Positions 2,828 to 5,924 of a stretch of 16,122 bases of DNA are shown here, one piece after another; positions within the stretch are counted from its first letter, which is position 1; the number at the start of each line of letters is the position of its first letter. A model generated the notes under the pieces. The model was not told the origin of the DNA. It saw only the letters and a list, made by a program, of their open reading frames with translations, and made no database searches. Location: positions 1 through 16,122 of the forward strand of contig JAIOPU010000181.1 in NCBI GenBank assembly GCA_021413725.1, given 5' to 3'. A program made the translations under genes and the position numbers. The stretch is from Armatimonadota bacterium (GTDB lineage Bacteria; Armatimonadota; Fimbriimonadia; Fimbriimonadales; Fimbriimonadaceae).

Positions 2828-3322
2828 TCACCCTTTCATAATTTTCCCTTCAGCGGTTACCACCCAGTTTCCAGCCTTCAATTCTACTTGCAGGGTGATG
2901 GATAGGCCGCCCCATCCGACGGATCGCAAGGAGCAGTTTACTTTTGCATTCGTTCCAGCTTGCAGCTCCCAAAGGTTTAGGTCGTATAGGCGAGCGGCCT
3001 TTCCCGAGGATTTTTCAAAAACTCCTTTGAAAGTCCTGTTACACTTGCTAACCGGCAAGAAATTGCTTCCCTGACTCAAAATTCGAGTTATAAGCTCGGG
3101 CGACGGGTCTTGCCCATCCACTGAAAGAAATTGAGCGGACGTCGCGTTTCCCCAGTAATTGGACCAGGGAGGCTTAGTAGTTAGATAATCGGTGCATGAG
3201 GCGAAAATCTCCTCTCTCTCACTCAGTGTAGGCCGAGTCTGCGACCGTTCCACCGGGTGTCGCGGAGGTGCCTTGCATCCAATCGTGACTGTGGCCAACG
3301 TTCCCAGCACAAGGGTCTTCAT
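2828..3322 (-). CDS. Hypothetical lipoprotein.
   Basis: The ORF 2828..3355 contains MKTLVLGTLATVTIGC, a signal peptide plus lipobox, beginning at the ATG at 3320-3322. It has no recognisable catalytic motif. It sits immediately downstream of the DinB-like gene on the same strand. Confidence 0.5.
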   Translation of the reverse strand: MKTLVLGTLATVTIGCKAPPRHPVERSQTRPTLSEREEIFASCTDYLTTKPPWSNYWGNATSAQFLSVDGQDPSPELITRILSQGSNFLPVSKCNRTFKGVFEKSSGKAARLYDLNLWELQAGTNAKVNCSLRSVGWGGLSITLQVELKAGNWVVTAEGKIMKG

Positions 3323-3365
3323 AGAGTTTGATCTGCAATTCATTTGGAAGCTCACTTAGAAGGAT

Positions 3366-3800
3366 TCACTCCCTCTCCCGAATCCAGCGCACAAAGTCAG
3401 TTTCCGGAAAGCCCACAATTTCCTGCGCCATGCAAAGCCCCCGAAGCTCTCCCCGGTGATAAGTCCCGTGGTTGATGACATGCCGGGCGATGTCGCAAAT
3501 CGCGATGTAGTAAACCTTCCCTTCCCTCTCCACCGAGGCAAAAGCCTCGATGTCGCACCGACTCAGAAGGTTTTTCCAAGCCTCCGCCATTTTCTCCAAA
3601 GTCGCCATCAGAGTGGGTTCGCGACCAGGGATTTCCTCTTCGCTAAAGCAAGTCTCAATCCAATGGGAGTAGCAGCGGACGTGGTGCTCAAGAATCGCAA
3701 GAGCGTCCTCGCGAAGAGCACTCGTCTCCGCCCAATCAAGCCAAGCCCGGTTCGCCCAAATATCGTAATCGAACCCTTCTTTCAGGCTGTCCAAAATCAT
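3366..3800 (-). CDS. DinB/YfiT-like (DinB_2 superfamily) putative metal-dependent protein.
   Basis: 144 aa with a His triad in the positions typical of DinB_2 (LEHHVRCYSHW near the N-terminus, ARHVINHGTYHRGEL near the C-terminus). The start ATG directly follows the TAG of the upstream ORF (TAGATG). Confidence 0.55.
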   Translation of the reverse strand: MILDSLKEGFDYDIWANRAWLDWAETSALREDALAILEHHVRCYSHWIETCFSEEEIPGREPTLMATLEKMAEAWKNLLSRCDIEAFASVEREGKVYYIAICDIARHVINHGTYHRGELRGLCMAQEIVGFPETDFVRWIRERE

Positions 3801-4124
3801 CTAAGCCTGCCCCGTAGCGCGCATCACGCCCCAAACCAAGCTCATCGCCATCCCCATCCGACACGCCATGAGCGTGTAATAAAGCTTCGATCCCCGCGTG
3901 TAACCATAAGTCGCCGAGGCGAGAAACGCGCCGGGAAGGTAGAGCGCGGCAAAAACAAGATAAGCCGGATGCAAAGGATTCTCGCGCTGAACGGCAAGAT
4001 AGATCTGCAAACTCACCGCCCCAACCGCCGCGACAATTGCAATGGCAAGCCCGATCTTGCCCATTTTGGGTGGAAGGCGGTGAACACCGGTAGCGCGGTC
4101 CATTCGGCTAGGCTCTGGGGTCAT
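3801..4124 (-). CDS. Small hypothetical membrane protein with 3-4 predicted transmembrane helices.
   Basis: 107 aa made of hydrophobic segments (IGLAIAIVAAVGAVSLQIYLAV, AYLVFAALYLPGAFLASATYGY, MGMAMSLVWGVM). It is tightly packed with the DinB-like gene. Its ATG overlaps the stop of the repeat-encoded ORF (ATGA). Confidence 0.4.
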   Translation of the reverse strand: MTPEPSRMDRATGVHRLPPKMGKIGLAIAIVAAVGAVSLQIYLAVQRENPLHPAYLVFAALYLPGAFLASATYGYTRGSKLYYTLMACRMGMAMSLVWGVMRATGQA

Positions 4125-4251
4125 GAGGAGAGTTTACACAAATCCGGAGGGTTTTCGGAAAGAGTAGAAGCGAGATGGCCAGCTCCCGCATGTGGTCGAC
4201 TGATTTTGGATGCAAGGAAACTCAAATTTTCAAAAATGACCTCGATTCTGA

Positions 4252-4419
4252 ATGGTAAAACCTCGTTCTTCTCATTGAAGATCGAAGTTTTGCCATTGAA
4301 AATCTCGTTCTTCTCATTGAAGATTGAAGTTTTGCCATTGAAAACCTCGTTCTTTTCATTGAAGATCGAAGTTTTGTCATTGAAAACCTTCGTCTTTCCA
4401 TTGGATAGCACAAAATTTC
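4252..4419. repeat. Array of about eight 21-bp units of two alternating types, equivalent to a 42-bp tandem repeat of ~3.5 copies. The two types are approximate reverse complements of each other.
   Basis: Type B is cattgaagatcgaagttttgc and type A is cattgaaaa(c/t)ctcgttctt(c/t)t. They alternate B-A-B-A-B-A from 4273 to 4398, with a partial A before (4252-4272) and a degenerate unit after (4399-4419). Every junction is an imperfect palindrome around a 5-bp (c/t)CATT core, either CGtTCTTC-tcatt-GAAGaTCG or CGAaGTTTTG-ccatt-GAAAACCTCG. The array is AT-rich compared with the flanking DNA. It is non-coding by context: it lies inside a 720-bp region between divergent genes. Confidence 0.85.
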
Positions 4420-4565
4420 CCGCCCATTTATGGAGGGACAATGACTGGAGGGAATTGAGGGGGGAAGTTTAACCTTTGCTCGGAGGGAGTTAGGCCCCGA
4501 GAACCAAATTTCCCCTCCCTGTTCGCTGAAGCGGAAGGCCTTTGTTGCGCGGAGCCTCAATTTGT

Positions 4566-4775
4566 TCAGACCACAATTGCTCCTTTTATAAGGCACATCA
4601 CCCCCAGCGGAAAAAGAAATCGACCTGACCAATAGAGACTATACACAGCTCCGAAAAACAGCTTCGCAACCTTCCCCTTGATCGCATCTCCGGTCGCGAA
4701 AACGAGAATCATGAACGCCACCAGAGGCGTACCGAGGAGCACAAGTCCCAATCTCGTCCATTCGCCCGATTGCAT
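4566..4775 (-). CDS. Hypothetical small membrane protein with two predicted transmembrane helices.
   Basis: 69-aa ORF with an ATG start (cat at 4773-4775). The hydrophobic segments are LGLVLLGTPLVAFMILVFA and FLFPLGVMCLIKGAIVV. There is no homology signal, and it could be a spurious ORF in the long intergenic region. Confidence 0.25.
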   Translation of the reverse strand: MQSGEWTRLGLVLLGTPLVAFMILVFATGDAIKGKVAKLFFGAVYSLYWSGRFLFPLGVMCLIKGAIVV

Positions 4776-4847
4776 TCTCCCATTATCACAGAAGCATGCG
4801 ATGAAGAATCATGTATCAAACCCAAGAGCCCGCTGCACTCTTAGTCC

Positions 4848-5924
4848 ATGGTCAAGCTCACGCTCAAATCCGTTCTCGCCACTTCAGCCCTCGCGGCATG
4901 CGCAATCTCCTCGGCTTCAGTCACCTACAGACTGACCGCCCTCGCCCCGGCTCCAGGCTATACGCAATCGGTTGCGATGGGTTTGAACGATCTGGGACAG
5001 GTCGTGGGTTACAGCGCTCCGAATAACATTGACTTCAACTACCAGGGCACCATTTGGAAAAATGGCCAGCCAACACTTCTCGGCAAGGTTGATCGGGGGA
5101 ATTACAGTTTGGCTTCGTCGATCAACAAAGCGGGAGAAATCACGGGCGAAGGCGATAATGGGAATATTCGCCCCCAAGTCATCATCTTTGCCAAGGGAAA
5201 GGCTTCCATCATTGATTCAGGCGCAAATAACTCGCGCGGCATGTTTATCTCGAAAACCGGAGTGATTGCCGGCAACTATGCTCGCGGCTTTGGCGGAGGT
5301 GGCTGGAATCCTGTCCTTTACACTCCCGATCCTCGAAAGCCGGGTGAGTACAAGCGAACTTCATTGCCACAATTTCCCGATCCTTCGGGCGCACAGAGCT
5401 ATTGCTATTGCTTTGGCGGAAACAACCGAGGCGAGGTGATCGGACAAATCAGTAGTTCACTTTGGAGCGCGCGAGGGGGCCTTTGGAATGCGGACGCAAC
5501 ACACAGCCTCACTTTGCTCGATCCGCTACCAAACGAATGGGATTCCTACGCGATGGGCATCAATGATGGCGGGACCGTGGTCGGCTATAGCGATACCGGC
5601 GTATTTTCCTCAACTCCTGTAATTTGGAGTGCATCGACCCACGAAGTCGCTCCGCTGCCACTGTTACCGGAAGAGATTCATGGCTACGCCTGGGCAATCA
5701 ACGGAGCAGGCACAATCATTGGTGCTCACGGCGAAAACGGCCAAGCATGCGTTTGGGTGAATGGTCAAATTCAGGACCTCCAGGCATCGCTGGACAGCAC
5801 CGGGGCAGGATGGACGATCGAGTTTGCTAGCGGCATCAACAAACTTGGCCAGATCGTCGGATACGGGCAATTGAACGGCAAGACGACCGCGTTCGTCCTC
5901 TCGCCGATTTCGACCGGACCCTAA
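4848..5924 (+). CDS. Secreted HAF-family repeat protein, probably a lipoprotein.
   Basis: 358 aa. The N-terminal signal peptide MVKLTLKSVLATSALAAC contains a possible LAAC lipobox. The body carries about seven copies of the motif A(M)GINDxGqVVGYS (AMGLNDLGQVVGYS, ASSINKAGEITGEG, AMGINDGGTVVGYSD, AWAINGAGTIIGAHGENGQ, ASGINKLGQIVGYGQLNGKTTAFVLSP), which matches my memory of the extracellular HAF repeat (TIGR03803), and ends with the HAF-like TAF. There is no PEP-CTERM tail. Confidence 0.65.
   Translation: MVKLTLKSVLATSALAACAISSASVTYRLTALAPAPGYTQSVAMGLNDLGQVVGYSAPNNIDFNYQGTIWKNGQPTLLGKVDRGNYSLASSINKAGEITGEGDNGNIRPQVIIFAKGKASIIDSGANNSRGMFISKTGVIAGNYARGFGGGGWNPVLYTPDPRKPGEYKRTSLPQFPDPSGAQSYCYCFGGNNRGEVIGQISSSLWSARGGLWNADATHSLTLLDPLPNEWDSYAMGINDGGTVVGYSDTGVFSSTPVIWSASTHEVAPLPLLPEEIHGYAWAINGAGTIIGAHGENGQACVWVNGQIQDLQASLDSTGAGWTIEFASGINKLGQIVGYGQLNGKTTAFVLSPISTGP

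Follow-up and report, generated by a model that had tools for sequence, protein, structure and literature searches.

Among the chromosomal housekeeping genes of contig JAIOPU010000181.1, from an Armatimonadota metagenome-assembled genome (MAG; assembly GCA_021413725.1), lies an array of short palindromic units that alternate in orientation at a strictly regular pitch, and the question raised by this locus is whether the array is a conserved regulatory site, part of a gene, a mobile element or a repeat peculiar to this place. The window analyzed was the entire contig, 16,122 bp in length. A preliminary description had counted about eight alternating palindromic sites with a 21-bp periodicity and had considered a phased operator or centromere-like array, a string of RNA hairpins and a degenerate mobile element as candidate roles. 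The reading favored here, tentatively and at slightly less than even confidence, is that of a non-coding, locus-specific and slippage-prone palindromic minisatellite, which has the architecture of a bacterial interspersed mosaic element (BIME) or of a REPIN (a paired form of the repetitive extragenic palindromic, or REP, sequence) without being a member of the REP sequences. The evidence points to an orphan, fast-evolving repeat in an operon spacer rather than to a conserved regulatory array, and intergenic, hairpin-forming tandem repeats are already known in bacteria as a kind.

The alternating array itself was confirmed with Tandem Repeats Finder (TRF), which returned a 42-bp tandem unit in 3.2 copies at 4257-4389 (93% matches, no indels, score 238), all other tandem repeats in the window scoring 40 or less. 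A degenerate 21-mer derived from both half-unit types found seven matches against 0.23 expected, a number that none of 200 shuffles reached. The CATTG cores, at 4273, 4294, 4315, 4336, 4357, 4378, and 4399, are spaced by exactly 21 bp, and the array consists of six full 21-bp half-units and one partial. The 21-bp periodicity described initially therefore holds for the spacing of the cores, but the true period is 42 bp, since autocorrelation reached 0.80 at lag 42 and 0.55 at lag 21 (0.28 expected); the 21-bp signal stems mainly from the core. A heptamer substructure is absent, as the autocorrelation at lag 7 (0.33) was close to the expected value. Each unit is composed of a 16-nt arm (GAAGATCGAAGTTTTG), the linker CCATT, a nearly complementary arm (GAAAACCTCGTTCTTC), and the linker TCATT. 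Grouped as a repeat family (D2), three copies of 63 nt at 42-bp spacing are 87-100% identical to each other, and this likeness points to a recent amplification. The GC content of 0.355 at 4200-4399, compared with about 0.50-0.57 (some 53%) elsewhere in the window, bears out the AT-richness noted at the outset. As the units are contiguous and lack unique spacers, clustered regularly interspaced short palindromic repeats (CRISPR) were rejected, in agreement with the preliminary description, which was also right to judge the array not to be a simple satellite.

Since successive arms alternate in orientation, each junction forms an imperfect dyad. At the six cores from 4273 to 4378, between 8 and 10 of 12 positions form Watson-Crick pairs around a YCATT centre, and the end junctions at 4252 and 4399 are degenerate (6/12 and 3/12 pairs). 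The description of the alternating unit types as roughly reverse-complementary was confirmed. Six good dyads thus stand and the count of about eight sites was generous, and the arms are longer than the 8-10 bp first assigned to them. Two GATC sites (4280-4283 and 4364-4367), previously placed at the dyad, lie in the arms of CATTGAAGATCG-type units, 6-9 nt from the dyad centre. Folding of the array gave -56.3 kcal/mol (z = -3.9) for one strand and -54.5 kcal/mol (z = -4.7) for the other, both values lying far below those of shuffled sequences. Single hairpins ranged from -0.6 to -8.7 kcal/mol. Each arm is able to pair with the neighbor on either side, so that different sets of hairpins, or a single long duplex with imperfections, can form. 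Three C-to-T variants among the copies keep G-U pairing on the plus strand, and a constant A-C mismatch becomes a G-U pair on the minus strand.

Variation of the array was assessed by comparison with relatives, those searchable being at species level; the next homologues of the nearby DinB-like protein are at most 48% identical and lie in other gene contexts. Loci from related Fimbriimonadaceae, about 70 kb in all, contain no repeat comparable to the array. One further strain was represented by contigs L145, L147, L156, and L157 (Logan samples SRR14092350/356/369/395), and another, the third counting the window, by the 737-bp contig L155 (ENA ERZ27246991). Contigs L145 and L147 carry the 107-aa gene downstream of the array and the DinB-like gene (protein 94% identical) and begin inside the array, and their unit counts cover only the array stretch up to the contig end. 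On the minus strand, the 72-bp array part of L145 reads ...TCTTCAATG, B4, A3 (a GATTG variant), and B3 fused to the end of B1 (half-units as in Table 1). Exactly 84 bp (2 x 42) present in the window between B3 and B1, on the promoter-proximal side, are missing from L145 and L147, and an extra A-type unit is present distally, beyond B4; in the minus-strand reading of L145 it precedes B4, which is terminal in the window. The array changes by whole units between strains, and its head-to-tail copies and unit-number differences are those of a variable-number tandem repeat (VNTR) or minisatellite. Contigs L156 and L157, which carry the HAF-repeat gene and the 69-aa gene upstream of the array, stop at window positions 4420 and 4434, which leaves them 1-15 bp away from the array end taken at 4419 and 17-31 bp away from the last core.

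The third strain has a 107-aa gene with 96% identity to that of the window, and the homology ends at window position 4147/4148, 23 nt upstream of the ATG of this gene, so that the neighborhood upstream of the cassette differs within the species. The 292 bp of L155 past the breakpoint contain no array or repeat, and this A/C-rich stretch matches nothing in the window. The lack of the array in a sister strain that retains the downstream cassette argues that it is dispensable for the presence of this cassette and evolutionarily young. The breakpoint coincides with an isolated inverted unit word, GAGGGTTTTC, at 4147-4156, a coincidence of uncertain significance given that 760 nt contain three inverted repeats of this kind, 10-11 nt in length.

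The genomic setting of the array differs from that first described. The preliminary description had placed it in a 720-bp divergent intergenic region; as the 69-aa gene at 4566-4775 is annotated on the minus strand, the array lies instead in a 441-bp spacer between co-directional minus-strand genes. This 69-aa ORF (open reading frame) is a real gene, since two weak homologues were found and seven synonymous but no non-synonymous changes separate it from its counterpart in L156. The distances given earlier were accurate (128-295 bp to the ATG at 4124, and 429 bp to the HAF gene), as was the identity of the divergent HAF-repeat gene, which matches TIGR02913. Neither a terminator-like nor a sigma-70-like site was predicted in the 4125-4565 spacer. 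Coordinates are collected in Table 1.

Table 1. Features of the array and its surroundings (positions in the window).
Feature	Position	Strand	Remarks
Core tandem array, quasi-palindromic 42-bp unit	4257..4389	.	TRF and family D2
Full half-unit run	4252..4403	.	16-nt arms in alternating orientation, YCATT linkers
Half-unit B1	4252-4272		Degenerate core GAATG
Half-unit starts	A1 4273, B2 4294, A2 4315, B3 4336, A3 4357, B4 4378
Terminal core	4399-4403
Extra degenerate unit AAATGACCTCGATTCTGAATG	4234..4254		Minus-strand match to the unit pattern with 3 mismatches; abuts the promoter-proximal array end
Isolated inverted B-unit word GAGGGTTTTC	4147..4156		Compared with GAAAACCTTC at 4382-4391; inverted repeat I2, 10 nt, 90% complementary
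Non-coding spacer, 441 bp	4125..4565	-	Holds the array and the 4430-4520 GGAGGGA/CCCTCC cluster; consecutive locus tags K8R88_10960, _10965, _10970, with no annotation between them
Upstream gene K8R88_10965 (MCE9559461.1), 69-aa two-helix membrane protein	4566..4775	-	NCBI annotation, exact match
Downstream gene K8R88_10960 (MCE9559460.1), 107-aa membrane protein	3801..4124	-	First gene of the cassette
DinB-like gene of the cassette	3366-3800
Lipoprotein gene of the cassette	2828-3355
K8R88_10970, HAF-repeat protein	4848-5924	+	TIGR02913
Spurious 106-aa ORF through the array	4121..4441	-	Heptads FNGKTSI/FNEKNEV; TGA overlaps the ATG of the 107-aa gene

In the mechanism proposed for the minisatellite, an imperfectly palindromic 42-bp unit has been amplified head-to-tail about 3.5 times, and either strand can form hairpins of 8-12 bp in alternative sets or a single long, imperfect duplex. 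The gain, loss, and reshuffling of 42-bp units would come about through slipped-strand mispairing or unequal recombination, as the strain comparison suggests. The array would most likely be transcribed within a minus-strand polycistronic mRNA, in which the hairpins may act in cis, through protection of the 3' end of the upstream cistron, RNase III/E processing or partial uncoupling of the downstream cassette, an action that would resemble that of REP/BIME clusters in enterobacteria. Consecutive hairpins in a minus-strand transcript had been among the roles suggested initially, and these fit the corrected context best, given the co-directional genes and the z-scores of the two strands, though we infer the transcription itself from gene order.

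The closest architecture is that of BIME-2/REP clusters, even though the structure of the unit does not agree with the definition of a REP. BIMEs consist of regularly spaced, alternating units with two kinds of short linker, form hairpins or cruciforms, and are often transcribed (PMC2817692; REP325, PMC4550694), and in a REP unit a GT(A/G)G head is joined to an imperfect palindrome rich in GC (PMC2817692). The array is likewise extragenic, with regularly spaced units of alternating orientation at a 21-bp pitch, 5-nt YCATT linkers of two kinds, the capacity to form hairpins or cruciforms, co-directional flanking genes, probable transcription, and a variable copy number. Its 16-nt arms, however, are AT-rich (about 37% GC for GAAGATCGAAGTTTTG), are not self-complementary, and lack a GTAG or GTGG head; it is known from one locus, as against REP copies that exceed 100 in a genome; no REP-associated tyrosine transposase (RAYT) gene was seen on this contig; and the host phylum is a different one. 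If the hairpins were to modulate operon polarity or recruit a protein, the array would represent a BIME-like mechanism with AT-rich 16-nt arms unrelated to RAYT-associated REPs, a claim of which the evidence falls short. To our knowledge, a REP-type system has not been described in this phylum.

Several observations weigh against the minisatellite reading. The individual hairpins are AT-rich and weak, and the G-U and A-C asymmetries of the two strands point in opposite directions and single out neither strand as the one on which RNA pairing might be under selection. The absence from the third strain derives from a single 737-bp assembly that is possibly chimeric, and the single-locus status of the array refers to the 16-kb contig. 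When a genome collection was searched with the pattern CATTGAA-N14 in three copies, the matches listed, in at least 120 genomes, were dominated by (CATTGAA)n heptanucleotide microsatellites and unrelated, mostly coding 21-bp repeats. Finally, the CATTGAA core is invariant, is always in direct orientation, and recurs at exactly two helical turns; neither this invariance nor the phasing is required by a pure hairpin model, and both would suit a DNA-binding protein.

A protein of that kind is the basis of one alternative, in which the array is a phased platform whose dyads or direct CATTGAA cores, 21 bp apart on one face of the helix, would be bound by a regulator in dimeric form or by a protein of the nucleoid or centromere type, with control of the minus-strand cassette or structuring of the DNA as the outcome. 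This is unlikely, if worth weighing. The six to seven sites at an exact 21-bp spacing with an invariant core, the AT-rich tract with its phased T4/A4 runs, and a likeness to sopC of the F plasmid (PMC3177203) are all in its favor, and the two-turn phasing fits the operator, centromere or nucleoid-protein array proposed in the preliminary description. That proposal is weakened by the strain comparison, as the array is rearranged in L145 and L147 and missing upstream of the same cassette in L155, and by the lack of partner genes, no regulator, ParA/ParB or Rep gene being present on the 16-kb contig. In addition, the two dyad types have different half-sites and could therefore not both be read by one dimer; operators normally conserve their half-sites rather than a non-palindromic centre, and here it is the non-palindromic core, rather than either half-site, that varies least. 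No second site was found in the contig, and no promoter-like site was detected. In sopC itself, formally a striking analogue, SopB binds a 16-bp inverted repeat that is present in each of 12 direct 43-bp repeats (PMC3177203). The tandem direct repeats with internal dyads found here (42 bp, 3.2 copies) resemble such a sopC/parC-like centromere in the head-to-tail order of units of 42 as against 43 bp and in the inverted repeat within each, but there are 3.2 copies rather than 12, the whole unit is palindromic rather than enclosing a 16-bp motif, and the array is situated among chromosomal housekeeping genes; neither sopA/sopB nor parA/parB nor plasmid similarity was found, and Pfam revealed no ParA, ParB or ribbon-helix-helix (RHH) protein on the contig. 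A BLASTN search with the array returned nothing from 72,556 plasmid or 50,697 phage records, and a plasmid or phage centromere or operator was rejected on the lack of both BLAST similarity and par genes on the contig. Tandem palindromes that generate two alternating dyad types, with dimers on one face of the helix, are also found in the met-boxes of MetJ and in paired ARG boxes with centres about 21 bp apart; these arrays comprise two to five sites of 8 or 18 bp and are conserved together with the regulated gene; the array differs from these in matching neither consensus, in having no regulator on the contig, and in varying between strains. An origin or iteron was also rejected, with three one-mismatch DnaA boxes in the contig against 2.3 expected, none of them near the array, and no rep or dnaA gene on the contig, in which a switch of GC skew was likewise not seen. 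Improbable, too, is a multivalent platform built on CATTGAA/YCATT, seven copies at intervals of two turns, that would serve as a sopC-like loading or nucleoid site or as a multi-hairpin RNA acting as a protein sponge; were it true, the number of units would be a strain-level tuning knob for the adjacent cassette of small membrane protein and DinB-like genes.

A rather doubtful alternative is that the array is one copy or cluster of a mobile repeat, of the REPIN/BIME or miniature inverted-repeat transposable element (MITE) type, whose family is dispersed over other places in the genome. Its regularly spaced, alternating units in an extragenic spacer have the BIME architecture (PMC2817692; REP325 cluster, PMC4550694), presence and absence between strains with a sharp breakpoint at 4147 beside an inverted unit-like word would agree with mobility, and the presence in another Armatimonadota MAG of a MITE-like element, unrelated to the array and found at two or more loci, indicates that such elements exist in the phylum. 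No second copy of either dyad was found in the 16-kb contig, however, and a degenerate two-unit pattern detected no related array in 241 million JGI (Joint Genome Institute) metagenome records (24 unrelated matches) and had no match among IMG/VR viral contigs. The arms have neither the GT(A/G)G head nor the GC-rich self-palindrome of a REP, the upstream sequence of L155 is replaced rather than presenting a precise insertion-free site, and the contig encodes no transposase or RAYT. It is more improbable still that the array is a stand-alone non-coding RNA (ncRNA) whose six or seven hairpins would sequester an RNA-binding protein, as CsrB and RsmZ do. The loop is conserved (YCAUU on the plus strand and AAUGR on the minus strand), the stems are more variable, and the folding z-scores are strong, all of which would suit such an RNA, but the copies are too recent for conservation of the loop to signify selection, the array is missing in L155, and neither a flanking promoter nor terminator is predicted. 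A known RNA-binding-protein motif such as GGA is not present. At gathering thresholds, Rfam recognized only the tRNA-Met in the window, and a permissive scan of 4000-4900 gave hairpin-type matches that all fell far below threshold, the best model on the array being that of a plant microRNA (30.9 bits against a threshold of 74); with no match at the gathering threshold and none that was credible at E <= 10, a known RNA family was rejected.

As a 106-aa ORF runs through the array, it was also considered whether the array is a heptad-repeat gene translationally coupled to the cassette through an ATGA overlap, or a coupling ORF like that of mycobacterial interspersed repetitive units (MIRUs), a reading that is now scarcely credible. 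The frame is open in both strains and was called as a gene on Logan contig L147, its stop overlaps the downstream start codon, two of the copy differences within the array are synonymous in it, and Pfam gave a match to TAA-Trp-ring (E = 4e-4), below the cut-off like all Pfam matches to this ORF. Against this, no homologue was found at E <= 10 among 5.8 billion proteins, the ORF is absent from a collection of 15 billion proteins, it was left unannotated at NCBI by the Prokaryotic Genome Annotation Pipeline (PGAP), and it matches nothing in NCBIfam. It starts with TTG, lacks a Shine-Dalgarno sequence, and falls short of the stop codon of the upstream gene, and its openness is shared by all three minus-strand frames and by one plus-strand frame across the repeat. 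Over the 126 nt that separate the repeat from the ATGA overlap, five positions differ from the sister strain, one of them synonymous in the frame of the ORF and four non-synonymous (P>L, H>P, L>P, and S>Y), compared with synonymous to non-synonymous ratios of 12:2, 23:8, 7:0, and 15:3, or 57:13 in sum, for the neighboring genes in the same strain pairs. A repeat-protein gene was rejected on these three grounds, namely the lack of homologues, the lack of annotation, and a substitution pattern that is non-coding, so that the coding test set out in the preliminary description ran negative and the coding reading is largely refuted. The MIRU-type VNTRs of Mycobacterium tuberculosis (Supply et al. 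1997, 2000) occupy about 40 dispersed loci, have a high GC content, and show no notable palindromic character. The array is similar to them in its tandem units within the 40-100-bp range between co-directional genes, in its strain-variable number, and in the overlap of ORF stop and start codon, but its ORF does not extend as far as the upstream gene, nor is the sequence of this ORF conserved.

If the array is a minisatellite and nothing more, it would offer a hypervariable marker for typing strains of an uncultured Fimbriimonadia-like lineage. Arrays of this type also break short-read assemblies, the unitigs here beginning inside the array or stopping 1-15 bp short of it.

Beyond the array, the spacer contains three GGAGGGA motifs on the plus strand and one CCCCTCCC at 4430-4520, where a hairpin GGAGGGA...TCCCCTCC is possible and where Shine-Dalgarno-like and anti-Shine-Dalgarno-like words are able to pair. 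Conservation of this stretch in the sister strain is about 95%, with 6 differences over 133 nt. A 15-nt direct repeat is formed by AGCACAAAATTTCCC at 4407 and AGAACCAAATTTCCC at 4500. The 69-aa protein aligns three times in succession along protein P0126, which has 237 aa (E = 1.9e-6), and, judging from this alignment, the small two-helix module exists also as a triplicated protein. The 107-aa gene, with 12 synonymous and two non-synonymous changes relative to L145, encodes a protein for which no homologues were found outside its own 90% cluster, and homologues of the DinB-like protein come from Fimbriimonadaceae, Chthonomonas, and Armatimonadetes MAGs. The remaining genes of the contig include tRNA-Met, SurE, PyrF, RsmG, two Opp-type permeases, a cytidylyltransferase-like protein (Pfam CTP_transf_like), TPR, ClpP, ClpX, an SPFH protein, and domains of unknown function (DUFs); Pfam scans of all large ORFs on the 16-kb contig revealed no regulator, partition, replication or transposase gene.

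A number of other repeats were encountered during these searches. Microsatellites of the form (CATTGAA)n, with CGTTGAA and CATTGAC variants, occur in more than 100 species-representative genomes of Bacteroidota, Ignavibacteria, Cyanobacteria, Verrucomicrobiota, Armatimonadota, and Gammaproteobacteria, many of them at contig ends; examples among the collected loci L001-L120 are L006 759-877, L027 7-132, and L091 7846-8000. They recall the intergenic heptamer direct repeats that have reportedly been found in Beggiatoaceae and cyanobacteria. The MITE-like element of the Armatimonadota MAG La4_metabat2.216 measures about 200 bp, is present at two or more loci (L073 7700-7880 and, on the minus strand, L028 at about 150-330), and has long terminal inverted repeats, GATTAAAGGATTATCTCTGACC...CTGTTGGATAGC and their complement, on either side of a core of heptamer repeats. 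Apart from the 9-mer TTGGATAGC the element has nothing in common with the window, and kinship on account of this shared word was rejected by BLAST. Contig L160 (ENA ERZ27251169) encodes a 73-aa homologue of the 69-aa gene (46% identity) and, immediately downstream of it at 1191-1325, contains a 51-bp direct repeat in about 2.5 copies (TGAGCGGATCGAAG...CAGTCCCCTCA) together with the inverted pair GTCCCCTCAATCG/CGATTGAGGGGAC; its position is similar to that of the array, and homology was rejected, only 8-9-nt words being shared (E about 1). Long arrays of a 21-bp satellite, CCCATTGAAAATGGTGATTTT and its variants, were seen on many contigs of JGI sample Ga0126342 (L122, L127, and others), and this satellite is probably eukaryotic or host-derived and unrelated to the window.

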